Notes: a model not told the origin generated them from the sequence alone. A DNA stretch of 64,000 bases from Escherichia coli O157:H7 (GCF_013167455.1 NZ_CP038328.1), one strand, 5' to 3'. Shown: positions 788 to 26,857, counted from the first letter of the stretch. Translations and numbers: made by a program.

Positions 788-1444
788 CTAGCGTAATGGA
801 ATGATATCGCCTTGCCAACCCTGTGATGAACGCTGACCGACTAACAATAATGAACCACGATCGGCGCGAACGATGAGACGACCATGTTCATCCCATAGTG
901 CACTGTTACCACGGGCATTTGCCATCAGCACAGCAATCGAGTACTGATGTGAAAAAAATTGTAAGCGACGGGCCGATGCCAGCAGGTCGGGTTCTCCCAG
1001 ACATTGCCCTGTCGTAAACAGTGAACAGGTCGGGTCCATATCCATACCTTGCGGTTGTTCATCGACCACCGTGATGGTTCTGGAACGACGGCCCAGACAT
1101 GCACCATGACTCTGATGGTAGATCCCAGGCGTTTTTCGCCACGGTGCGAACACCGCAATTCCACGAATAAAGCGATCGTTATATTCAACGGGAAGGCCGG
1201 CAATGATGGTCATTCGCCAGGTCGTTGCGGCATAACAAAGCGGGTCTAACAGTGAGAGATCGGGTGGGGCAGGAAGGGCACGTCGCGAATAATCACACCC
1301 CAGTAAAGAAAGCGATGGAAAAACTAACAGCTGACATTGTTGCCTGGCGGCGGCCCTCACAAACTCCAGATGATGAGCTACCTGTTCGGTGAGTGAGGTT
1401 TTACGAGGCTCATATTGCGCTGCTGCAACTTTCCAGAACGACAT
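788..1444 (-). CDS. yobB: C-N hydrolase (nitrilase superfamily) protein
   Basis: 218 aa track ORF; K-12 position between exoX and holE. Confidence 0.85.
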   Translation of the reverse strand: MSFWKVAAAQYEPRKTSLTEQVAHHLEFVRAAARQQCQLLVFPSLSLLGCDYSRRALPAPPDLSLLDPLCYAATTWRMTIIAGLPVEYNDRFIRGIAVFAPWRKTPGIYHQSHGACLGRRSRTITVVDEQPQGMDMDPTCSLFTTGQCLGEPDLLASARRLQFFSHQYSIAVLMANARGNSALWDEHGRLIVRADRGSLLLVGQRSSQGWQGDIIPLR

Positions 1445-1545
1445 AATGACTTCCTTTTCAAAATGACTGCAAATTATGGGTGCGGTTTAGAAAATACTCA
1501 TAATTTAGCAGGCGTTATGTAAGAAAGTGTAACTCTGTATAAGTT

Positions 1546-1776
1546 TTATTTAAGTTTGGGCTCGTAAGGTAAACGTGACAGATTGACCGAAGCCAAACGG
1601 TGGGCAATAAGCCGCTCGCGAAACCAGCTGCGCAAATGTTCAGGCTGTTCACGTTCAACCGCTTCAGCGATCACTGGCATATTGTAGCGTTCTTTAAATG
1701 CCACCCCGGCCGCCGCCAAATCGACATTCACTTTATCCATTTCTGTTTGATCCAGTTTAGCCAGATTCTTCAGCAT
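1546..1776 (-). CDS. holE: DNA polymerase III theta subunit
   Basis: Track ORF trimmed to ATG at 1776 ([35 protein letters not shown]..., 76 aa); GAGGAG Shine-Dalgarno upstream. Confidence 0.9.
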
Positions 1777-1914
1777 TCTTAATCTCCTCATCATTCGCGG
1801 GCAAAAGTTACTAAGAGTGAGCCTGGATGGCAAGCCGGAATTGATGATCCTCGACTCAGACATTAGACAAGGTTATGCTCTGTAAAAAAGTTATTACAAA
1901 AAGGAATAGATAAT

Positions 1915-2289
1915 ATGGCTTCAACTGCACGCTCCCTTCGCTACGCGCTGGCAATCCTGACCACTTCGTTGGTGACACCTTCCGTCTGGGCACATGCGCA
2001 TTTAACGCATCAGTATCCTGCGGCAAACGCGCAAGTGACAGCTGCACCGCAGGCAATCACTTTAAACTTCTCGGAAGGTGTTGAAACAGGATTCAGTGGT
2101 GCAAAAATCACGGGGCCAAAAAACGAAAATATTAAAACATTACCGGCGAAGCGAAATGAGCAGGACCAAAAGCGACTGATTGTTCCACTGGCCGATTCGC
2201 TGAAACCCGGAACCTACACCGTTGACTGGCATGTTGTTTCGGTGGACGGGCATAAAACGAAAGGACACTACACCTTTAGCGTGAAATAA
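1915..2289 (+). CDS. yobA: Periplasmic CopC-family copper-binding protein
   Basis: 124 aa with signal peptide followed by HAHL (CopC N-terminal His motif). Confidence 0.9.
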   Translation: MASTARSLRYALAILTTSLVTPSVWAHAHLTHQYPAANAQVTAAPQAITLNFSEGVETGFSGAKITGPKNENIKTLPAKRNEQDQKRLIVPLADSLKPGTYTVDWHVVSVDGHKTKGHYTFSVK

Positions 2290-2292
2290 ATC

Positions 2293-3165
2293 ATGCTGGC
2301 GTTTACCTGGATCGCGCTGCGATTTATCCATTTCACCTCGCTGATGCTGGTCTTTGGCTTCGCAATGTACGGTGCCTGGCTGGCACCCTTAACGATTCGT
2401 CGCTTGCTGACGAAGCGTTTTCTGCGTTTACAACAGCACGCTGCCGTCTGGAGTTTGATCAGTGCCACTGCAATGCTCGCCGTTCAGGGCGGGTTGATGG
2501 GAACGGGATGGAAAGATGTATTTTCGCCAAACATTTGGCAGGCTGTTTTGCAAACGCAGTTTGGTGGCGTCTGGTTATGGCAAATTGTTCTCGCCCTCGT
2601 AACGTTGATCGTCGCCCTTATGCAACCGCGGAATATGCCACGTTTGCTGTTTATGCTCACTACCGCGCAATTTATTCTGCTGGCGGGAGTGGGGCATGCG
2701 ACGCTGAATGAAGGGGTAACGGCGAAAATCCATCAGACTAATCACGCGATTCACCTGATTTGTGCGGCGGCGTGGTTTGGGGGATTACTGCCGGTGCTCT
2801 GGTGTATGCAACTCATCAAAGGCCGTTGGCGACACCAGGCTATTCAGGCGCTGATGCGTTTTTCCTGGTGCGGGCATTTTGCGGTGATCGGCGTACTGGC
2901 AAGCGGCGTGCTTAATGCATTGTTGATTACCGGATTTCCCCCCACGCTTACGACTTACTGGGGCCAACTCTTATTGCTCAAAGCCATCCTGGTGATGATT
3001 ATGGTGGTCATTGCGCTGGCTAATCGTTATGTTCTTGTACCGCGCATGAGGCAGGATGAAGATCGTGCGGCACCCTGGTTTGTGTGGATGACTAAACTCG
3101 AATGGGCGATAGGTGCGGTAGTGCTGCTGATCATCAGCCTGCTTGCGACTCTCGAACCTTTTTGA
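2293..3165 (+). CDS. yebZ: CopD-family inner-membrane protein
   Basis: 290 aa polytopic membrane protein starting 4 nt after yobA (operon). Confidence 0.9.
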   Translation: MLAFTWIALRFIHFTSLMLVFGFAMYGAWLAPLTIRRLLTKRFLRLQQHAAVWSLISATAMLAVQGGLMGTGWKDVFSPNIWQAVLQTQFGGVWLWQIVLALVTLIVALMQPRNMPRLLFMLTTAQFILLAGVGHATLNEGVTAKIHQTNHAIHLICAAAWFGGLLPVLWCMQLIKGRWRHQAIQALMRFSWCGHFAVIGVLASGVLNALLITGFPPTLTTYWGQLLLLKAILVMIMVVIALANRYVLVPRMRQDEDRAAPWFVWMTKLEWAIGAVVLLIISLLATLEPF

Positions 3166-3177
3166 TGGATTACGAAA

Positions 3178-3519
3178 ATGATGAAAAAAAGTATTCTGGC
3201 GTTTCTGTTACTCACCAGTTCTGCAGCGGCGCTGGCTGCACCGCAGGTGATTACCGTCAGCCGTTTTGAAGTGGGTAAAGACAAATGGGCGTTTAATCGC
3301 GAAGAGGTGATGCTGACTTGCCGACCGGGTAATGCTTTGTATGTCATCAACCCAAGTACCCTCGTGCAGTATCCTTTAAACGATGTCGCACAGAAGGAAG
3401 TTGCCAGTGGGAAGACTAAAGCCCAACCCATTTCGGTGATTCAGATTGATGATCCCAACAATCCCGGCGAAAAAATGAGTCTGGCACCGTTTATAGAACG
3501 AGCTGAAAAACTCTGTTAA
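3178..3519 (+). CDS. yebY: Secreted DUF2511-family protein
   Basis: 113 aa with signal peptide; third gene of the yobA-yebZ-yebY operon. Confidence 0.85.
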
Positions 3520-3548
3520 TTACCTAAAATAGCCTTTTGATTTCCAAT

Positions 3549-3591
3549 AAAAAAACCGCCTCAGTTCTTTCACCAGAACGGGCGGTTTTTA
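3549..3591. terminator. Bidirectional intrinsic terminator downstream of yebY
   Basis: Hairpin AACCGCC...GGCGGTT flanked by an A-tract on the 5' side and a T-tract on the 3' side, so it is terminator-like on both strands. Confidence 0.6.
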
Positions 3592-3639
3592 ACATTTAAG
3601 CTGATGACCACCGCGCTTTTTATTGACCATTTTGCACGC

Positions 3640-3677
3640 AAACTGGAAAACCTGGCGTCGTCATCTATTCTTAAAGG
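3640..3677 (+). promoter_or_regulatory. Sigma-S-type promoter of sdsR
   Basis: TCTATTCT (-10 TATTCT with upstream C) ending 6 nt before the SdsR 5' end. Confidence 0.45.
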
Positions 3678-3780
3678 GCAAGGCAACTAAGCCTGCATTA
3701 ATGCCAACTTTTAGCGCACGGCTCTCTCCCAAGAGCCATTTCCCTGGACCGAATACAGGAATCGTGTTCGGTCTCTTTTT
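3678..3780 (+). ncRNA. sdsR: Small regulatory RNA SdsR (RyeB)
   Basis: Sequence GCAAGGCAACTAAGCCTGCATTAATGCC...GTTCGGTCTCTTTTT matches remembered SdsR; ends in a hairpin (GACCGAA/TTCGGTC) plus T-tract; lies in the yebY-pphA intergenic region as in K-12. Confidence 0.75.
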
Positions 3781-3914
3781 ATCTGTTAAAAGCCAGAAGC
3801 ATTTCCTTCGCTGACTTTATAGTCAACCATAACACACACTCTACTGTCTGAGTCCAGCGTTTTTTAACATTCTTGTTAAGATTATGTGATCTTTAGCGCG
3901 GGAGGAAAATATTG

Positions 3915-4571
3915 ATGAAACAGCCTGCGCCCGTTTATCAGAGAATTGCGGGTCATCAATGGCGACATATCTGGCTTTCTGGCGATATACACGGTTGTCT
4001 TGAGCAGTTGCGCCGCAAATTATGGCATTGTCGTTTTGATCCGTGGCGAGATTTACTTATCTCAGTGGGAGACGTTATCGATCGTGGGCCGCAAAGTTTA
4101 CGTTGTCTGCAGTTACTGGAACAACATTGGGTTCGTGCGGTAAGAGGCAATCATGAACAGATGGCGATGGATGCGCTGGCATCCCAGCAGATGTCTTTGT
4201 GGTTGATGAATGGCGGCGACTGGTTTATTGCGCTGGCAGATAATCAACAGAAACAAGCGAAAACGGCGCTGGAAAAATGTCAGCATTTGCCCTTTATTCT
4301 TGAAGTACACAGCCGCACCGGCAAACATGTTATTGCTCATGCCGATTATCCAGATGATGTTTATGAATGGCAAAAGGACGTTGATTTGCATCAGGTCTTG
4401 TGGAGCCGCTCGCGATTAAGTGAACGCCAAAAAGGGCAGGGAATTACAGGTGCTGATCATTTCTGGTTTGGTCATACACCGTTGCGCCATCGCGTGGATA
4501 TTGGCAACCTGCATTATATTGATACCGGCGCTGTCTTTGGGGGCGAACTGACTTTCGTGCAATTGCAATAA
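3915..4571 (+). CDS. pphA: Serine/threonine protein phosphatase 1 (metallophosphatase)
   Basis: Motifs GDIHG, GDVIDRG and GNHE in the translation; 218 aa from the second ATG. Confidence 0.9.
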   Translation: MKQPAPVYQRIAGHQWRHIWLSGDIHGCLEQLRRKLWHCRFDPWRDLLISVGDVIDRGPQSLRCLQLLEQHWVRAVRGNHEQMAMDALASQQMSLWLMNGGDWFIALADNQQKQAKTALEKCQHLPFILEVHSRTGKHVIAHADYPDDVYEWQKDVDLHQVLWSRSRLSERQKGQGITGADHFWFGHTPLRHRVDIGNLHYIDTGAVFGGELTFVQLQ

Positions 4572-4867: not shown

Positions 4868-5104
4868 TCAGGCAAGACGCATAATCCAGGCATCAGATTG
4901 TTGATCGTAACGGGTACGGTAAAGGACAGAGTGTTCGCCATTTAGCAGGGCAGGGATACTGGTTTCAGCATCCCAGGCATCCAGTTGCATACATAAATCG
5001 GGGTCTGATTTACAAGGAATGGTTAACGTTCGATCACCCGGCGATTCACCGTGTAATTCGCCGTCGTCGATTTCAAAAGCGCCTATGCGCACACTGGTTT
5101 TCAT
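4868..5104 (-). CDS. yebV: Uncharacterized protein YebV
   Basis: Track ORF trimmed to ATG at 5104 (MKTSVRIGAFEIDDGELHGE..., 78 aa). Confidence 0.85.
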   Translation of the reverse strand: MKTSVRIGAFEIDDGELHGESPGDRTLTIPCKSDPDLCMQLDAWDAETSIPALLNGEHSVLYRTRYDQQSDAWIMRLA

Positions 5105-5221
5105 CTTCGTGCTCTCCATTTAGCTGCCGGTTGTGGTACGACCAGTCCGATCGCACCATTTTTCAGCCTAGTTGAGGCCGCCGAATGTGCCAGTCAAAAA
5201 GTGCGCTTTTTTTGTGCGCTG

Positions 5222-6661
5222 TCATGCGTTACTGGTAAAAAGTTTCCCGTCCCGCACCAGTTCACGCGGGTAGCTGTTTTTCAGTCGCGAACCAATCCGT
5301 TTGGCTAAACCAATCGGCTGATGCTGGAAAGTAACCAACACGTCATCCGCCACTGGCGCGGCTTGCGGGTAAACATCGCGCCCGCGATACCACTCCTCCG
5401 CTTCTTGCGGTGTCAGTTCAAAAGCGTTCTCGTTGTCGGGGGAGGCAAGGGCAATAACCGCTTCATGCTGCCAGCGATAACCTTTGTTGTGCGTTTCGGC
5501 AAGTTTAATCCCCAGGCGAGAAAATCGGACTTTACCGATCAGGGCTTCAATGCCTACCGGAAACAACCACACTTCTTTGTCGCGCTGCCAGAGTCGCAGG
5601 TTTCCATCCCAGTTTAAGCCAACACTTGCAGCCGCCTGACGAATTTGTGCGGCTTCGCGATCTTTCACCGGGCTGAACGGGAAATTGCCCACTTTGTATT
5701 TTGGGGTGGGTAAGGCGGGAATGGCCTGAGTTTTACGCAGACGAGCAACGAAGAAGCCTTCGCAGTCGTAAATTTGTGGGAAAACATGCAAAAAGCCTTC
5801 TTCGGTCAGCGCTTTGTTTGCACCAGGGAAGAGATCGCCAAGTGGTAAAAACTCTACTGCGTCGGGGTAAGTCTCTTTAAGCCACAGGCAAACGGATTCG
5901 TTTTCTTCCCGGTTTAAGGTACAGGTCGAGTAAACCAGTGTACCGCCAGAGCGTAATGCATGAAAGGCACTGTCGATCAGTTCCCGTTGGGTAGCTGCGA
6001 TTTCCTGATTGCTTTCTGGTGACCAATTTTTTAGCGCATCGGGATCTTTACGCACCACGCCTTCGCCGGAGCAGGGAGCGTCCAGCAAAATGGCATCGAA
6101 CATTTCTGGCAATGCCGCACCAAACACGCGGCCATCAAAATGTGTGAGCGCAACATTACTGATACCACAGCGGCTGATATTGGCATGTAACACTTTTACC
6201 CGACTGGCGGAAAACTCATTGGCAAGGATTGCCCCTTCGTTATTCATCCGCGCGGCAATTTGCGTCGTTTTGGAGCCTGGCGCAGCAGCGACATCCATCA
6301 CCCGCTGTGGTGCATTACCGTCAGCAAACAAGGCGGCGACGGGCAACATTGAACTGGCTTCCTGAATATAAAACAGGCCACTTAAATGCTCGGCGGTACT
6401 ACCCAATGGCAATGCATCTTCATCGTCGCGTTCAATCCAGAAACCTTCTTCACACCACGGAATTGGCGTAAGCGTCCAGCCATAAGGAGCGGTTAATCGC
6501 AGGAAATCAGCAACGGAGGTTTTCAGCGTATTAACGCGAATGCTGCGGCGCAACGGGCGCTGACAGGCGGCAAGAAAATCATCAAAAGAGAGCGTCGAAG
6601 GCATTGCTTCGCGCATTTGCGTCAGAAAGGCGTCCGGGAAATAAACGGTGTGTTGGGCCAC
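5222..6661 (-). CDS. rsmF: 16S rRNA m5C1407 methyltransferase (NOL1/NOP2/Sun family)
   Basis: SAM-methyltransferase motifs [10 protein letters not shown] and DAPCSGEG; start set at GTG 6661 for the recalled 479 aa (ATG at 6667 is an alternative); track ORF is over-extended upstream. Confidence 0.85.
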
Positions 6662-6741
6662 GAGCATATACCACTGGCAAAAAAAACAGGCGCGCAGTTT
6701 AGCATAAACGCTCCGGCGCAGGCACGCCGGAGCAGTGGGCA

Positions 6742-9375
6742 TTATTTGGGAAGCGCAGTTCCCCATTCACGCCACTCTTTCGGTTCACTTTCCTGCAACA
6801 GGAAGTGCTTGCCTTCCTGGGCTTTCGGTGCCAGTGGCGTACCCGGAGGCGTGGCGAAGGCGATGCCGCCACGGATAAACTGGTTAAAGGTGCCGGTTTT
6901 CACTACGCCGCCCGTCAGACCAAAGTCCAGACTGTAACCCGATGCCAACCAGAAGACGGAATTGTTACGCACCAGGTGTTGATAGCGTTTACTGATGCGC
7001 ATCGCAATCATCACGCGATCTGACAATGTCCCCAGCGTCATTCCGGTAACCGTACCGACTTCCAGACCACGGAACAGCACAGGCGTACCGATGCCTAACG
7101 AACAGGCTTCCGGCGCTTCAACAATAATGCTTAAACCATCCAGGTAACGCGAATCAGTAATGGTGGCCTCTTGTAATTCAAAGTCGCGACGAGGATTGCC
7201 ACGGCCTGGTTCGACGTTGATATACGGCTGGAGGATAGTATCAAGATGCTCAACGCCAGCTGCCGAAATTTGCGGTGTGACCACTGAGAAGCGCGTACCA
7301 CCGCGAGCAAAGGTCTGGACATATTCCGGATAGAGCACCGCCTTTGCCTGTACTTCATTGCGCGCGGTAATCAGATCCAGCGTCTGGATTTGCCCGATAT
7401 CAATACCGAGATAGCGAATTGGCATCCCGACCGCCAGTTTTCCGGCATCGAAAGCATGAAGCGTAATCTGCCCGCCAACCGCACGGGCCGCTGTTTCGGA
7501 AGCATACAGAATACGCTTATCGCCTTTACGCTGACTGGCGCTGGCACCGCTGAGGTTATCGAAGCTAATGGCTCCCTTTAATGCTCTGGAGAGTGGGGAT
7601 GCCTGTACGGTCAGGCCACTACCATTCAGCTGAACTTTCGCCCCGCCTTCTGCCCAGAACACGCTATTGTTGGTCAGAAGGTTGCGATACTCCGGCTTAA
7701 TATGCAGATCGATATCAAACGCGTTAGCTCGCGGACGCACGGTAATAACTTCACCAACTTCAAATTTACGGTACAGCACTACCGATCCTGCCTGCACATC
7801 CGGCAGCGTCTCTGCACTCAAACTCACGGTTGTGGTGGGTAAATCGCTAAGGCTGTTCTCCAGCGCTTTTTCCAGATTGGCATACAGTGGATAGCTGGCT
7901 TTCATCTCACCTTTATCGCCCGGCAGAATACGTATCCCGCCATTGATCCATTCTGAGGCGCTGGCACCGAGAAACTCAACGCCATCCAGCCCCACCTTCA
8001 CATCGACACGGCTGTTGACGACAAATTTGCTATCGCCTTTTACCAGTTCGCGATGCTGAGGCTCAATGGCGACGGTAAAGGTAACGCCTTTGCTGGTGAG
8101 TTTACGATCAATAACCTGGCCTACCTGCACGCCGTGAAGAATGAGCGGCTGACCAGCATCAATACCGTAACTTTCCGGTGCTGTCAGGGTCAGTGTCAGA
8201 ACATCAGGTTCATGCAGCAGTGCTTTTTCGCCTGGCACAACAACGAACTCTTTGCGTGGCTCGCCATCGCCAGGCACCAACTCAAAGGTTTTTCCGGTCA
8301 GCAGGGCGCTGAGATTGGCATCGCTAAGGGATAATTTCGGGTTGCGTAATTCGATGCGGGTATTTTCCCGTAACAGCGTAACGACGCTGGGATCAACGGT
8401 CATTTCTCCGGTGACTTTACCACCAGGATTTAAATCCAGTTTAGTCAGCTGTCCGACTTCCAGCCCCTGATACATTAACGGCGTCGAGTCGGCGGTTAAT
8501 CCGGCCCCACTCGGCAGTTCCAGTTTTATTATTACGCCACGCTGGCTGTGGGCCAGATCTTCATACAGACCAAAGGTATCTTCCGCCTCGGCAGGTTTCG
8601 ACTCTTCTGGTGAATCGAAGGCAATCGCACCGTTAACCAGTGCCGCCAGACTTTCCAGTTTCACCTTCGCGCCACTGATACTGACGTTGGCATCAACGCC
8701 TGAAACGTTCCAGAAACGGCTACCTTTTTTCACCAGGTCGGTAAAACGCCGCTCGATCAGGACATCAATCACCACGCCTTGTTTATTGGGATTGATGGCA
8801 TAGTCGTAGACTTTTCCCACCGGGATCTTGCGGAAATAGACCAATGAACCGCTGTTCAGCGAACCGAGATCGGGAGCTTGCAGGTGGATCATCAGATCGC
8901 CGTTATCCAGCCGATACTTCGGTTGGGTATCGAGCGCGACAAAGTGATCCTGCTCTTTACCTTTACCTGGCATCATGCCGATATAGTTACCACCGACGAG
9001 GGCGTCCAGCCCGGAGACACCTGCCAACGATGCTTTTGGCGTCACCAGCCAGAACTGAGTCTCTTCGCGCAGCGCATCTTTCATATCGGACTTGATGCTG
9101 ACCTTGACTTCAATCTTACGAAGATCGTCGCTGAGGCTGATATCCTGCACTGTTCCGACTTCAACGCCCTGATAACGAACAGGCGTACGGCCCGGGACAA
9201 TACCATCCGCCGACATAAAGTCGATGGTGACGGTATTACCCCGGTCCTGATAACTGTCCCAAATCAGCCAACCGGCAATCATTAGCGCGATGAACGGCAG
9301 CAGCCAGAAAGGTGAGATACGGCGTTTATTTTTAATCTGCGCTTCAGTCGTCGAAGCGGGCGTTTCCTGACTCAT
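6742..9375 (-). CDS. letB: Periplasm-spanning multi-MCE-domain lipid transport protein LetB (YebT)
   Basis: 877 aa from ATG 9375 ([28 protein letters not shown]...), one N-terminal TM then long repetitive beta-rich body; overlaps letA stop by 32 nt. Confidence 0.9.
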
Positions 9376-10627
9376 GTGCATCCCAAAGTAAGCGGCTGTC
9401 CAGCCATTCCACAGCAAGAATAGTCAAAATTACCGCTGCGCCGAAATAAAACGCAGCCGGTCCCATAGTAAAAGCGAGGATCTGATCGCGATTAATCAGC
9501 GACATGGTTAAAGATATGACAAACAGGTCGAGCATCGACCAGCGACCAATCCAGGTCACCATCCGCAGTAACAGAATGCGTGTGCGTAAACCTTGCTGGC
9601 ATTTAAAATGAATGCTCAACAGTAAAGTGAACATGACGATCACTTTAGTAAACGGTACCAGAATACTGGCGATAAACACGATTCCTGCAACCGCAATGTT
9701 GCTACTTGCCAGCGACATAATTCCGGAAAGAATTGTATCTTCCTGCCGTCCTCCGTTCAGATAAATGATAGAAATAGGCAACAGGTTGGCAGGTAACAAT
9801 AAAACGATTGACGCTAACAGCGCCGCCCAGCATTTTTGCAGACTATGACGGCGACGCAGGCGTAGCGGAATATGACAACGCGGGCAGCGACCACGCTGAT
9901 CAGGATAGCCGGTAAAATGGCACCCAAGACAGACACGAAGTTTCTCGTCCCTACGCGTAGCGGGGCGCTGCGGATAAAATCGCTCCCACAGCTCCTCGAC
10001 ATTAAGATGTGACAACGTCACCGTCGTTAAAATCACCAACGCCACAAAAGAGAACAAGCCGACACCCGCCTGGATATGGGCATAATCCTGTACCTTTATA
10101 GAAGCAACGCCAATGCCGACCAGGTAGATATCGAGCATTACCCACTCTTTAAGTCGCTCAAGCATCAGCAGTACCGGGCGTAGATTCATTCCCAGTCGGT
10201 TACCAAACCATAAATAAGCTATGGAGGTCACCAGAATGAGCGGGGCACCAATAACGCAGAAAAAGACCATCGACCCCGTTATCGCATCGCCCTGTTTGGT
10301 CATTTGCCAGATGCCTTGCATAACGTTGGCGTCAATACGAATGCCTAACAGCCAGATATGCAACAGCGGTTCGCCCCAGGCAAACGGCATCAGCAACAGC
10401 ATGGTGAAGGCCATTGCCGCCAGGCGCGTTAGCGACCAGTCGCGCCCGTCACGAATTTTTGCCTGACAGCGCGGACAATAGGCACTTTGATGAGAATTTA
10501 TCTCGGGCAGGCTAAACAGCATGTCACATTGCGGGCAACGTTGGTAATCACCACGCGGCAGTTCCTCGCCGATTGCCCTCACTGTTATCTTTTTTGTCGG
10601 CGTAATTTGTGGTGTGTTAAGAGCCAT
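9344..10627 (-). CDS. letA: PqiA-family inner-membrane protein LetA (YebS)
   Basis: 427 aa; two CxxC pairs (CPQCD...CPRC, CLGCH...CPRCH) and polytopic TM segments. Confidence 0.9.
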
Positions 10628-10756
10628 GACGTGCCAAATGTAATAAGAATTAACATTAATCTTAACCCATGATGGGAATGATCTTGAGCATTAACGCATT
10701 TAATGCTTATTTTAATAGGCTGGCAGTTCCAGGTAAGACAACCAAGTGATTATATA

Positions 10757-11254
10757 ATGAACAAAACAGAATTTTACGCGGATTTAAATCGCGACTTTAA
10801 CGCGCTGATGGCGGGAGAAACCAGTTTTCTGGCAACGCTTGCGAACACCAGTGCGTTGTTATATGAGCGTCTCACTGACGTAAACTGGGCAGGTTTTTAT
10901 TTGCTTGAGGACGATACACTGGTGCTCGGACCATTTCAGGGCAAAATTGCCTGTGTCCGGATACCCGTCGGGCGTGGCGTGTGCGGCACTGCGGTTGCCC
11001 GCAATCAAGTGCAGCGTATCGAGGATGTTCATGCGTTTGACGGGCATATTGCCTGTGATGCGGCGAGTAATTCTGAAATTGTTCTGCCGCTGGTGGTGAA
11101 AAATCAGATTATTGGTGTTCTCGACATCGATAGTACCGTCTTCGGTCGCTTTACAGACGAGGACGAGCAAGGCTTACGTCAGCTTGTGGCACAGCTTGAA
11201 AAAGTGCTTGCAACGACGGATTACAAAAAATTCTTTGCGAGCGTCGCAGGATAA
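10757..11254 (+). CDS. msrC: Free methionine-(R)-sulfoxide reductase (GAF domain)
   Basis: Track ORF trimmed to ATG 10757 (MNKTEFYADLNRDF..., 165 aa). Confidence 0.85.
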   Translation: MNKTEFYADLNRDFNALMAGETSFLATLANTSALLYERLTDVNWAGFYLLEDDTLVLGPFQGKIACVRIPVGRGVCGTAVARNQVQRIEDVHAFDGHIACDAASNSEIVLPLVVKNQIIGVLDIDSTVFGRFTDEDEQGLRQLVAQLEKVLATTDYKKFFASVAG

Positions 11255-11350
11255 TCAACGGATAACGTAGCATTTACTGATAGCGTCATTATAATGACGC
11301 CTGTTCATGCCTGCGCTTGTTGGCTACGTCCGTTGTAATCAGGAAATTTC

Positions 11351-12049
11351 ATGGAAAATCAACCTAAGTTGAATAGCAGTAAAGAAGTAATCGCGTTTCT
11401 GGCCGAACGTTTTCCCCACTGTTTCAGTGCGGAAGGTGAAGCGCGTCCGCTGAAAATCGGTATTTTTCAGGATTTGGTCGATCGTGTTGCCGGGGAAATG
11501 AACCTGAGCAAAACGCAATTACGATCCGCTTTACGTCTCTACACTTCGAGCTGGCGTTACCTTTACGGTGTTAAACCCGGCGCAACGCGTGTCGATCTTG
11601 ACGGCAACCCATGCGGTGAGCTGGACGAGCAACATGTAGAGCATGCTCGCAAGCAGCTTGAAGAAGCGAAAGCGCGTGTTCAGGCACAGCGTGCTGAACA
11701 GCAAGCGAAAAAACGCGAAGCTGCCGCAGCTGCTGGTGAGAAAGAAGACGCACCGCGTCGCGAACGCAAGCCACGTCCGACCACGCCACGCCGCAAAGAA
11801 GGCGCTGAACGTAAACCTCGTGCGCAAAAGCCGGTAGAGAAAGCGCCAAAAACAGCAAAAGCACCTCGCGAAGAACAGCACACCCCAGTTTCTGACATTT
11901 CAGCTCTGACTGTCGGACAAGCCCTGAAGGTGAAAGCGGGTCAAAACGCGATGGATGCCACCGTATTAGAAATCACCAAAGACGGCGTCCGCGTCCAGCT
12001 GAATTCGGGTATGTCTTTGATTGTGCGCGCAGAACACCTGGTGTTCTGA
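11351..12049 (+). CDS. proQ: RNA chaperone ProQ
   Basis: 232 aa; FinO-like N-terminal domain, K/A/R/E-rich linker, C-terminal domain; followed by prc. Confidence 0.95.
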
Positions 12050-12068
12050 AACGGAGGCCGGGCCAGGC

Positions 12069-14117
12069 ATGAACATGTTTTTTAGGCTTACCGCGTTAGC
12101 TGGCCTGCTTGCAATAGCAGGCCAGACCTTCGCTGTAGAAGATATCACGCGTGCTGATCAAATTCCGGTATTAAAGGAAGAGACGCAGCATGCGACGGTG
12201 AGTGAGCGCGTAACGTCGCGCTTCACCCGTTCTCATTATCGCCAGTTCGACCTCGATCAGGCATTTTCGGCCAAAATCTTTGACCGCTACCTGAATCTGC
12301 TCGATTACAGCCACAACGTGCTGCTGGCAAGCGATGTTGAACAGTTCGCGAAAAAGAAAACCGAGTTAGGCGATGAACTGCGTTCAGGCAAACTCGACGT
12401 TTTCTACGATCTCTACAATCTGGCGCAAAAGCGTCGTTTTGAACGTTACCAATACGCTTTGTCGGTACTGGAAAAGCCGATGGATTTCACCGGCAACGAC
12501 ACTTATAACCTTGACCGCAGCAAAGCGCCCTGGCCGAAAAACGAGGCTGAGTTGAACGCGCTGTGGGACAGTAAAGTCAAATTCGACGAGTTAAGCCTGA
12601 AGCTGGCAGGAAAAACGGATAAAGAAATTCGTGAAACCCTGACTCGCCGCTACAAATTTGCCATTCGTCGTCTGGCGCAAACCAACAGCGAAGATGTTTT
12701 CTCGCTGGCAATGACGGCGTTTGCGCGTGAAATCGACCCGCATACCAACTATCTTTCCCCGCGTAATACCGAACAGTTCAACACTGAAATGAGTTTGTCG
12801 CTGGAAGGTATTGGCGCAGTGCTGCAAATGGATGATGACTACACCGTTATCAATTCGATGGTGGCAGGTGGTCCGGCAGCGAAGAGTAAAGCTATCAGCG
12901 TTGGTGACAAAATTGTCGGTGTTGGTCAAACAGGCAAGCCGATGGTTGACGTGATTGGCTGGCGTCTTGATGATGTGGTTGCCTTAATTAAAGGGCCGAA
13001 GGGCAGTAAAGTTCGTCTGGAAATTTTACCTGCTGGTAAAGGGACCAAGACCCGCACTGTAACATTGACCCGTGAACGTATTCGTCTCGAAGACCGCGCG
13101 GTTAAAATGTCGGTGAAGACCGTCGGTAAAGAGAAAGTCGGCGTGCTGGATATTCCTGGCTTCTATGTGGGTTTGACAGACGATGTCAAAGTGCAACTGC
13201 AGAAACTGGAAAAACAGAATGTCAGCAGTGTGATCATCGATCTGCGTAGCAATGGTGGTGGGGCGCTGACCGAAGCGGTATCGCTCTCAGGTCTGTTTAT
13301 TCCTGCGGGTCCTATTGTTCAGGTCCGTGATAACAACGGTAAAGTTCGTGAAGACAGCGATACCGACGGACAGGTTTTCTATAAAGGCCCGCTGGTGGTA
13401 CTGGTTGACCGCTTCAGTGCTTCGGCTTCAGAAATCTTTGCCGCGGCAATGCAGGATTACGGTCGTGCACTGGTTGTGGGTGAACCGACGTTTGGTAAAG
13501 GCACCGTTCAGCAATACCGTTCATTGAACCGTATTTACGATCAGATGTTACGTCCTGAATGGCCAGCGCTGGGTTCTGTGCAGTACACGATCCAGAAATT
13601 CTATCGCGTTAACGGCGGCAGTACGCAACGTAAAGGCGTAACGCCAGACATCATCATGCCGACGGGTAATGAAGAAACGGAAACGGGTGAGAAATTCGAA
13701 GATAACGCGCTGCCGTGGGATAGCATTGATGCCGCGACTTATGTGAAATCAGGCGATTTAACGGCCTTTGAACCGGAGCTACTGAAGGAACATAATGCGC
13801 GTATCGCGAAAGATCCTGAGTTCCAGAACATCATGAAGGATATCGCGCGCTTCAACGCTATGAAGGACAAGCGCAATATCGTTTCTCTGAATTACGCTGT
13901 GCGTGAGAAAGAGAATAATGAAGATGATGCGACGCGTTTGGCGCGTTTGAACGAACGCTTTAAACGCGAAGGTAAACCGGAGTTGAAGAAACTGGATGAT
14001 CTACCGAAAGATTACCAGGAGCCGGATCCTTATCTGGATGAGACGGTGAATATCGCACTCGATCTGGCGAAGCTTGAAAAAGCCAGACCCGCGGAACAAC
14101 CCGCACCCGTCAAGTAA
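12069..14117 (+). CDS. prc: Tail-specific periplasmic protease Prc (S41, PDZ)
   Basis: Track ORF trimmed to ATG 12069 (MNMFFRLTALAGLLAIAGQTFA signal peptide), 682 aa. Confidence 0.95.
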   Translation: MNMFFRLTALAGLLAIAGQTFAVEDITRADQIPVLKEETQHATVSERVTSRFTRSHYRQFDLDQAFSAKIFDRYLNLLDYSHNVLLASDVEQFAKKKTELGDELRSGKLDVFYDLYNLAQKRRFERYQYALSVLEKPMDFTGNDTYNLDRSKAPWPKNEAELNALWDSKVKFDELSLKLAGKTDKEIRETLTRRYKFAIRRLAQTNSEDVFSLAMTAFAREIDPHTNYLSPRNTEQFNTEMSLSLEGIGAVLQMDDDYTVINSMVAGGPAAKSKAISVGDKIVGVGQTGKPMVDVIGWRLDDVVALIKGPKGSKVRLEILPAGKGTKTRTVTLTRERIRLEDRAVKMSVKTVGKEKVGVLDIPGFYVGLTDDVKVQLQKLEKQNVSSVIIDLRSNGGGALTEAVSLSGLFIPAGPIVQVRDNNGKVREDSDTDGQVFYKGPLVVLVDRFSASASEIFAAAMQDYGRALVVGEPTFGKGTVQQYRSLNRIYDQMLRPEWPALGSVQYTIQKFYRVNGGSTQRKGVTPDIIMPTGNEETETGEKFEDNALPWDSIDAATYVKSGDLTAFEPELLKEHNARIAKDPEFQNIMKDIARFNAMKDKRNIVSLNYAVREKENNEDDATRLARLNERFKREGKPELKKLDDLPKDYQEPDPYLDETVNIALDLAKLEKARPAEQPAPVK

Positions 14118-24838: not shown

Positions 24839-25300
24839 TTGCTACCTCCTTTATTATCGTTAACACCTCAACGTGCCAGATGTATTTTTGAATCGTCGTC
24901 CACAATCGAATCGATTCAGATAAGGGCTACAACCAAAAACCCCTGCGTTTCGCGATTTATTTTAGATATCGAAAAAATTATTTTATGTGATGAAGATCCG
25001 TAATTTAACTTTCGATTAGCAGAAATTTCGAAAGGTAAAATATCCTTGTCACATTCGTTTGCAAAGGAAGGTAAATCTTTGCCAAATCAGAGGCGTCTCT
25101 GATATGTTTAACTCCCGTTTAACAATCATGGAGTATAGGGCAGTAGCCCGCAGTATGGATCGTCACCGACGTCATTTCAGCATCAGGCCTTTTAACGCCT
25201 GCCTTTCTGGCACTCTATGCCGCACCTTTCGTTTGCATTTTGTCGTTACGCCTGCATTATTTCTGGCGTCGAATAGCTATTCCTTAAGCAGGAGCTTGTC

Positions 25301-26857
25301 ATGGAATTCTTAATGGACCCCTCAATTTGGGCGGGGCTACTCACGCTTGTTGTTCTCGAAATTGTGCTGGGTATCGATAACCTGGTCTTCATCGCCATTC
25401 TTGCTGACAAACTGCCGCCAAAACAACGCGATAAAGCGCGTTTGCTGGGGTTATCACTGGCGCTGATTATGCGTCTGGGGCTGCTGTCGCTGATTTCATG
25501 GATGGTCACGCTGACCAAACCGCTATTTACCGTCATGGATTTCTCCTTCTCCGGACGCGACCTGATTATGTTGTTCGGGGGGATATTCTTGCTGTTCAAA
25601 GCAACAACCGAACTGCATGAACGGCTGGAAAACCGCGATCATGATTCCGGCCACGGTAAAGGCTACGCCAGTTTCTGGGTGGTCGTCACACAGATTGTCA
25701 TCCTTGACGCCGTCTTCTCGTTGGATGCGGTAATTACTGCAGTAGGGATGGTTAACCATCTGCCGGTGATGATGGCGGCGGTAGTGATTGCGATGGCGGT
25801 TATGTTGCTGGCATCCAAACCGCTGACGCGATTCGTTAACCAGCACCCCACGGTGGTGGTGCTCTGTCTGAGCTTCCTGTTAATGATTGGTCTGAGTCTG
25901 GTGGCAGAAGGTTTCGGTTTCCACATTCCGAAAGGTTACCTGTATGCCGCGATTGGCTTCTCGATCATCATCGAAGTGTTTAACCAGATTGCGCGTCGCA
26001 ACTTTATTCGTCACCAGTCGACTTTGCCGCTGCGAGCGCGTACTGCCGATGCCATCCTGCGTTTGATGGGCGGGAAACGTCAGGCCAATGTTCAGCACGA
26101 TGCCGATAACCCGATGCCGATGCCGATCCCGGAAGGTGCATTTGCCGAAGAAGAACGTTACATGATTAACGGCGTACTGACGCTGGCGTCGCGTTCTCTG
26201 CGCGGGATCATGACGCCGCGCGGTGAAATAAGCTGGGTTGACGCTAATCTCGGGGTCGATGAAATCCGCGAGCAGCTGCTCTCCTCACCGCACAGCCTGT
26301 TCCCGGTATGTCGCGGTGAACTGGATGAAATCATCGGAATCGTACGTGCTAAAGAACTGCTGGTGGCGCTGGAAGAGGGCGTTGATGTGGCGGCGATTGC
26401 TTCGGCGTCTCCGGCGATTATCGTCCCTGAAACCCTCGATCCGATCAACCTGCTGGGCGTGCTGCGTCGTGCTCGCGGGAGCTTTGTTATCGTGACCAAC
26501 GAGTTTGGTGTGGTACAAGGCTTGGTCACGCCGCTGGATGTGCTGGAAGCCATTGCGGGTGAATTCCCGGACGCTGACGAAACGCCGGAAATCATTACTG
26601 ATGGTGACGGCTGGCTGGTAAAAGGCGGTACAGATTTGCATGCCTTGCAGCAGGCGCTTGATGTTGAGCACCTTGCCGATGACGATGATATCGCGACGGT
26701 CGCGGGCCTCGTGATCTCGGCAAATGGTCACATTCCCCGTGTGGGCGATGTGATTGATGTAGGGCCACTGCATATCACCATCATTGAAGCCAATGATTAT
26801 CGTGTTGATCTGGTTCGCATTGTTAAAGAGCAACCGGCGCACGATGAAGATGAGTAA
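25301..26857 (+). CDS. yoaE: Inner-membrane protein with TerC-like N-terminus, CBS pair and CorC/HlyC C-terminal domain
   Basis: 518 aa; membrane N-terminal half followed by a soluble CBS/CorC-like half. Confidence 0.9.

Follow-up and report, generated by a model that had tools for sequence, protein, structure and literature searches.

The start codon of letB in Escherichia coli O157:H7 lies 32 nt inside the 3' end of letA, and letB probably initiates autonomously at this codon (ATG 9375), its start site being housed in a dispensable 3' tail of letA. In the mechanism that we propose, the ribosome-binding site and start codon of letB would both fall within the last 14 letA codons, and ribosomes would begin LetB at ATG 9375 via a weak SD-like GGGA provided by the conserved LetA codons for W415 and D416. 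The letB start would work autonomously, by de novo initiation, which would let LetB exceed LetA, as the LetA1:LetB6 complex requires. The short, disordered and mutation-tolerant C-terminal tail of LetA would read through the letB start to the next stop and thereby create the 32-nt overlap; selection would fix the position of the start, while the length of the overlap would drift between lineages. Ribosomes that have completed letA may contribute some letB initiation, either by re-initiation or by local unwinding, albeit letB would not depend on them.

The letA-letB locus

The window, i.e., the whole stretch of 64,000 nt analysed here (GCF_013167455.1, NZ_CP038328.1), carries the following features at the letAB locus.

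9344-10627, minus strand: letA (yebS) coding sequence, 427 aa; ATG at 10627, stop TGA at 9346-9344 (ORF listing and translation)
6742-9375, minus strand: letB (yebT) coding sequence, 877 aa; ATG at 9375-9373; N-terminal TM helix and seven MCE domains
9344-9375, minus strand: dual-coding overlap of letA and letB, 32 nt; LetA residues 418-427 plus the stop, LetB residues 1-11
6709-6734, minus strand: stem-loop after the letB stop, 11-bp and GC-rich, in the 80-nt gap before rsmF; terminator-like, with a poor T tract

Across the overlap, letB is read in the +1 frame relative to letA. An earlier note on this DNA had placed the letB start at 9375, 32 nt inside the 3' end of letA, and this position was borne out to the base by the ORFs, by RefSeq and by K-12. 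RefSeq carries the same 32-nt overlap in O157 genomes and in K-12 MG1655, where letA occupies 1916258..1917541 and letB 1917510..1920143 (b1833-b1834). The 3886-nt letAB region showed 100% identity to many O157 chromosomes and was found in 5424 of 5426 complete E. coli genomes. Between O157 and K-12, a single nucleotide differs in the junction ±150 nt. LetA is 100% identical both to K-12 LetA and to chain A of PDB 9n8w, and LetB, which matches chain B of the same entry over residues 1-877, differs from its K-12 counterpart at three of the 877 residues (S35G, S569N and G758C).

The two proteins had been described in the same note as a PqiA-like membrane protein and an 877-aa MCE protein, and both identities hold up against Pfam and PDB 9n8w. 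LetA matched Pfam PqiA (PF04403, E=1e-81) in two stretches (modules), as a polytopic inner-membrane protein of the PqiA family; its zinc-ribbon CxxC pairs and the stretch G361-R-W-S-M-x-D-x-F369 were invariant in the alignment, which places it among the LetA-type members of that family. LetB matched MlaD/MCE (PF02470, E=8e-84) in seven stretches. With 877 aa, seven MlaD stretches and a gene directly downstream of letA, the protein belongs to the LetB-type MCE tunnels.

The best explanation of this arrangement is a compact two-gene operon, in which the letB start site is embedded in letA. We failed to find a recognisable SD upstream of the letA start. A promoter and terminator scan gave nothing beyond shuffle expectation except the stem-loop after letB, and an Rfam scan of positions 5000-12500 returned no RNA family.

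The overlap itself is an ordinary feature that is already known, being both annotated and published. Santarossa et al. (Nature 2026, PMC13017536) state the 32-bp overlap of letA and letB and used a functional "deoverlapped" plasmid; their PDB entries 9N8W and 9N8X comprise LetA and the 877-aa LetB. The E. coli K-12 letA-letB of that study (PMC13017536), annotated in RefSeq and EcoCyc, is the same locus with the same 32-nt overlap, and only strain-level substitutions distinguish it from the O157 locus. Our literature search found no paper analysing the translation of the letA-letB junction. The comparative evidence alone is mildly new, namely that from Enterobacterales to Pasteurellaceae the ATG is fixed in nucleotide sequence, and so is its spacing to the W-D codons, while the overlap length and LetA residue 418 vary. 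The significance beyond housekeeping is small; the structural literature on LetAB treats the overlap as a cloning nuisance, which was removed without loss of function.

Conservation of the letB start position

The sequence that would serve as the ribosome-binding site of letB is as follows.

9380-9385, minus strand: SD-like UGGGAU, LetA codons W415-D416, 4 nt upstream of the letB ATG

Pairing of its GGGA with the anti-SD is weak (about -4 kcal/mol, spacing 4). We surveyed the junction in 79 LetA/PqiA loci from GTDB species representatives. The letB ATG stands exactly 4 nt after UGGGAY or UGGGAA (the W415-D416 codons) in 45 loci of Enterobacterales and Pasteurellaceae, 36 of which have an overlap of exactly 32 nt; other Pasteurellaceae show the equivalent geometry with UGGAAA, 4 nt and ATG. 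In the 45 loci, residue 418 of LetA is His, Tyr or Asp by lineage, and its codon is invariably NAT followed by G. As NAT+G is kept throughout despite the change of residue, the letB ATG is conserved at the nucleotide level.

LetAB junctions differ considerably in length between lineages.

Brenneria: 50-nt overlap
Edwardsiella: 41-nt overlap
Mangrovibacter and Acerihabitans: 29-nt overlap
Providencia and Moellerella: 26-nt overlap
Most Pasteurellaceae: 14-35-nt overlap
Haemophilus, Aggregatibacter segnis and Rodentibacter rarus: 146-179-nt overlap, the usual letA stop being missing
Pectobacterium: 2-nt gap
Dickeya: 16-nt gap, with its own AGGGUAA SD

Three of these arrangements occur side by side in the Pectobacteriaceae alone, and 16 nt was the widest separation of letA and letB among the LetAB loci surveyed. 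The locus of Yersinia aldovae (L046), a candidate for an in-frame LetA-LetB fusion, was rejected as such: a 1-nt frameshift lies inside letA, which is thus a pseudogene or misassembled, and the junction is of the normal 32-nt type.

The best-supported reading of these alignments is that the position of the letB start is what has been conserved, and that the length of the overlap is a by-product which changes readily in evolution. The letB start would be anchored just past the FDxRLxWD that closes the conserved LetA/PqiA core, from which a variable LetA tail would run to the next stop. The cryo-EM structure resolves neither LetA residues 419-427 nor residues 1-13 of LetB (PMC13017536). The LetA positions of low tolerance in deep mutational scanning (DMS) lie in the periplasmic pocket, the polar network and the zinc ribbons, with the exceptions of A128, I131, F141 and A272, and none is named in the C-terminal tail (PMC13017536).

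Autonomous or coupled translation of letB

The capacity of isolated start sites to initiate can be read from INRI-seq (Hör et al., NAR 2022, PMC9825163), in which a synthetic RNA pool is translated in the PURE system with retapamulin. The template for each E. coli gene comprises only 30 nt of upstream sequence and 153 nt of coding sequence (PMC9825163). The values for the genes concerned are the following (PMC9825163).

yebT (letB), start 1917510: 29.8, 49.1, 35.1, 61.8 and 69.1 CPM (five replicates); template 59 CPM
yebS (letA): 6.3-7.9 CPM; template 541 CPM
pqiA: 56-79 CPM; template 75 CPM
pqiB: 0-14 CPM; template 89 CPM
pqiC: 203-301 CPM; template 56 CPM

An initiation peak was present at the annotated yebT start in all five replicates, about 7-fold over yebS (PMC9825163), and the yebS signal was the lower of the two despite an about 9-fold excess of its template (PMC9825163). 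Since the isolated yebT fragment initiates, the letB start can recruit ribosomes de novo without letA translation in vitro; the assay uses short, denatured RNAs, and thus speaks for the capacity to initiate alone rather than for initiation on the full-length mRNA in cells. For Ribo-RET in vivo, the INRI-seq table (PMC9825163) quotes 0 CPM for both yebS and yebT.

The earlier note had taken the overlap to suggest coupled translation. If so, letB output would track that of letA, as ribosomes terminating on letA would either scan back 32 nt and re-initiate, or open local structure for a 30S subunit. We consider this unlikely, albeit several features of the junction agree with it: the co-directional overlapping arrangement, the tight junction kept across about 45 LetAB loci, the weak SD of letB, and the precedent of RNA phages, for which coupling is documented at -38 and -50 nt (review PMC12548453). 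Nevertheless, the isolated letB start initiates in vitro without any translation of letA and far above the letA start, coupling efficiency falls sharply with stop-start distance (PMC12548453), and relatives tolerate both gaps of 2-16 nt and overlaps of up to 179 nt. The stop-start spacing of -32 nt is beyond the -4/-1 motifs or the very short spacer of the termination-reinitiation type, and letAB does not belong to that class.

Local RNA structure also bears on coupling. One hairpin is predicted at the junction.

9340-9358, minus strand: predicted 7-bp hairpin CGCUUCG/UGAAGCG, spanning the letA stop (+17 to +35 of letB)

A ribosome terminating on letA would melt this hairpin, as coupling through local structure would require, but the significance of the prediction is doubtful, its stems being invariant only in Enterobacteriaceae and showing no covariation. 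No unusual structure sequesters the letB start. The fold of the 121-nt junction RNA gave an MFE z-score of -0.45, i.e., it is not unusually structured, and the energy needed to open letB -18 to +12 (in a ±100-nt context) was 10.3 kcal/mol, ranking 40th among the 60 annotated genes in the window. With such a start region, letAB is not a member of the RNA-unfolding type of coupled pairs either.

The composition of the complex and the weak start of letA argue in the same direction. The LetAB complex contains one LetA and six LetB (chain counts of PDB 9n8w), a ratio beyond re-initiation alone, which yields 1:1 at most. In addition, letA lacks an SD and its INRI-seq signal is very low; so weak a start would leave few terminating ribosomes available for re-initiation. 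Finally, the de-overlapped LetA-LetB construct is functional, another argument against dependence of letB on letA translation. It is listed in the preprint plasmid table of the LetAB study as the 'LetA-LetB (deoverlapped) complementation vector', and it served as the wild-type reference for DMS (PMC13017536). The overlap is thus dispensable for function under those conditions, which are permissive, as complementation proceeded under leaky multicopy plasmid expression.

Two observations count against autonomy. The spacing of -32 nt falls within the range of phage coupling, as at the coat-lysis junctions of fr (-38) and MS2 (-50) (PMC12548453), and so tight a junction (16 nt apart at most) is in keeping with proximity having some selective value. 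On balance, obligate coupling of letB to letA is not supported, and a modest contribution of coupling in vivo is possible. We infer that autonomous initiation is dominant in vivo, and that the LetA:LetB stoichiometry would be set in this way. A 6:1 complex made from an overlapping gene pair is a reminder that overlap need not mean equimolar coupled synthesis.

Comparison with pqiABC and RNA phages

The junction of pqiA and pqiB had been suggested as a comparison for that of letA and letB, and it resembles the latter in part. As in letAB, the E. coli pqiA-pqiB-pqiC genes place a gene for a PqiA-family membrane protein directly before one for a hexameric MCE protein, and PqiA and LetA both end their conserved core with FDxRLxWD. 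The likeness extends to the ribosome-binding site of the MCE gene, which in both systems is embedded in the 3' end of the PqiA gene (GAGGAG within pqiA). It does not extend to the overlap, as a 4-nt gap lies between pqiA and pqiB, whereas pqiB-pqiC shares 4 nt (ATGA). Among PqiAB-type loci (B protein of about 540-590 aa) from alpha-, beta-, gamma- and deltaproteobacteria, an 8-nt overlap together with a strong SD is the most frequent arrangement. The isolated starts also behave differently in INRI-seq, where pqiB is weak relative to pqiA, the reverse of what is found for letA and letB (PMC9825163).

E. coli pqiA has an in-frame upstream ATG in its 3' end, and we considered whether the letB ATG, which lies in the 'CAT GAG' (His-Glu) codons of letA, is homologous to it. 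This was rejected: PqiA tails past WD vary freely in length and sequence elsewhere, so the alignment of the two H-E pairs is probably fortuitous. INRI-seq detected no initiation at that in-frame upstream ATG of pqiA.

The coat-lysis junctions of the RNA phages fr and MS2 share with letAB a downstream start that is out of frame and lies tens of nucleotides before the upstream stop (PMC12548453). The phage start, however, stays silent unless there is translation or termination upstream, whereas the letB start is active in isolation in vitro and is not unusually structured.

A more elaborate reading assigns the overlap itself a role. The letB start would be hard-wired into letA across two gammaproteobacterial orders, with the W-D codons acting as the SD-like element and codon 418 kept as NAT+G purely for the letB ATG, and ribosomes crossing the final 11 codons of letA may either occlude the letB start or assist initiation there, and so help to set the 6:1 ratio. 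It is attractive to speculate along these lines, since a long overlap would then tune stoichiometry, unlike simple 1:1 coupling, but we regard the scheme in its entirety as doubtful.

The start codon of letB and dual coding in the overlap

Autonomous initiation at ATG 9375 presupposes that this codon is the genuine start. The letB frame is open further upstream, back to TTG 9417, and contains another ATG there (9381-9379); both escaped the earlier note.

9379-9381, minus strand: alternative ATG, 6 nt upstream of the letB start; M-H-M start, 38-nt overlap; unconserved

LetB made from this ATG, alone or together with that at 9375, would be an 879-aa protein beginning MHMSQ and would extend the overlap to 38 nt. 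This is very improbable, although the window, K-12 and many Enterobacterales all carry ATG 9381. The codon exists only if D416 is encoded by GAT and codon 417 starts with G, and Enterobacter, Kluyvera, Pluralibacter, Siccibacter, Pseudocitrobacter and the E. coli species representative (L004) all lack it. Its patchy occurrence among relatives stands against the invariance of ATG 9375, no SD-like sequence lies upstream of it at a usable distance, and Table S3 of INRI-seq lists no non-annotated initiation site for yebT. The TRAINSPOTTER N-terminomics supplements contain no yebT/letB entry. To judge from the comparative data, the letB start is ATG 9375 rather than ATG 9381. Initiation of LetB at a downstream ATG, which the earlier note had named as the observation that would overturn its proposal, is ruled out as well. 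The next in-frame ATG, GTG or TTG after 9375 is that of M33, within the TM helix, and LetB expressed untagged from a His-LetA/LetB plasmid has TM residues 14-45 in the cryo-EM model (PMC13017536).

The overlap is a case of true dual coding, more than chance or an annotation artefact, since wobble positions are suppressed in both frames. We compared wobble entropy among 35 distinct sequences of related species with the 32-nt arrangement. Third positions of letA fell from 1.15 bits upstream to 0.33 bits in the overlap (Mann-Whitney p=4.7e-4), and those of letB were at 0.36 bits in the overlap vs 1.30 bits downstream (p=5.2e-4), both p-values being only indicative because of the phylogenetic relatedness of the sequences. 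Conservation also extends to the two peptide ends, LetA finishing with WDAH[EA][ST]GNA[RED][FY]xD before its stop and LetB opening with M[SQ]QETP. With the entropy drop in each frame and the conserved tails, letA and letB qualify as an overlapping, dual-coding, co-directional pair. A slippery motif for a programmed LetA-LetB frameshift fusion was not evident by eye in the overlap.

That the overlap is an annotation artefact, with LetB starting beyond the letA stop or LetA ending earlier and no dual coding at all, has a negligible chance of being right and is effectively refuted by the conservation data: long overlaps frequently stem from mis-annotated starts, and more than 80% of overlapping gene pairs share <30 bp (PMC12548453), but the next start codon, M33, would cut into the TM helix seen by cryo-EM, and both the suppression of wobble and the conserved LetA tail and LetB N-terminus contradict it. 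In the native context, mutations in LetA 415-427 also change the letB ribosome-binding site or the LetB N-terminus.

Start sites in the pqiABC operon and overlaps in the window

As a candidate for genuine translational coupling, pqiA-pqiB looks stronger than its paralogue letA-letB. In the INRI-seq assay of K-12, which measures initiation in vitro on isolated start regions, the pqiB start was weak, yielding 0-14 CPM as compared with 56-79 CPM for pqiA and 203-301 CPM for pqiC. The K-12 pqiA-pqiB junction is a 4-nt gap, in contrast to the 32-nt letA-letB overlap; every other co-directional overlap among the ~70 genes of the window is shorter. The K-12 locus is listed below, together with the remaining overlaps annotated in the window.

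L002 (K-12 locus) 1002-4460: pqiABC
Window about 25300-25313: yoaL/yoaE overlap, co-directional, 13 nt
Window about 52310-52355: nimR/yeaL overlap, convergent, 44 nt

A hairpin is predicted at the letA-letB junction.

Window 9340-9358, minus strand: predicted hairpin of 7 bp across the letA stop codon, letB nt 17-35

Within Enterobacteriaceae the stem bases do not vary, whereas in Yersiniaceae and Erwiniaceae they do; no covariation was found in the predicted stem.

letA-letB junctions in relatives

The letA frame lacks its usual stop in Haemophilus haemolyticus (L052), H. seminalis (L053), Aggregatibacter segnis (L057) and Rodentibacter rarus (L049), and runs 146-179 nt into letB, whereas sister species, such as R. 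ratti, carry 26-nt overlaps. The junctions lie near locus position 5200-5400, and the read-on, which crosses the codons of the LetB TM helix, would add an out-of-frame tail of ~40-50 aa to LetA. The letA gene of Yersinia aldovae ATCC 35236 (L046) is frameshifted by 1 nt near codon 295 (locus about 4880-4900), which points to a pseudogene or to an error in the assembly; its junction with letB is of the normal 32-nt type.

Sequence downstream of letB and strain differences

The 80-nt gap between letB and rsmF contains a stem-loop directly 3' of the letB stop.

Window 6709-6734, minus strand: GC-rich stem-loop of 11 bp, arms TGCTCCGGCG...CGCCGGAGCG

Given its poor T tract, the stem-loop may terminate transcription weakly, stabilise the mRNA or be a REP-like element.

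LetA is identical between O157 and K-12, while O157 LetB (window 6742-9375, minus strand) carries three substitutions relative to K-12, of which S35G lies in the TM helix; the others are S569N and G758C. Compared with strain FORC_044, the window shows single-base indels at about 2290-3165 (plus strand), about 25.55 kb and about 58.15 kb. The first interval corresponds to copD (yebZ), which the window carries as an unbroken ORF of 290 aa, and the second indel lies within yoaE; both genes are annotated as frameshifted in FORC_044.
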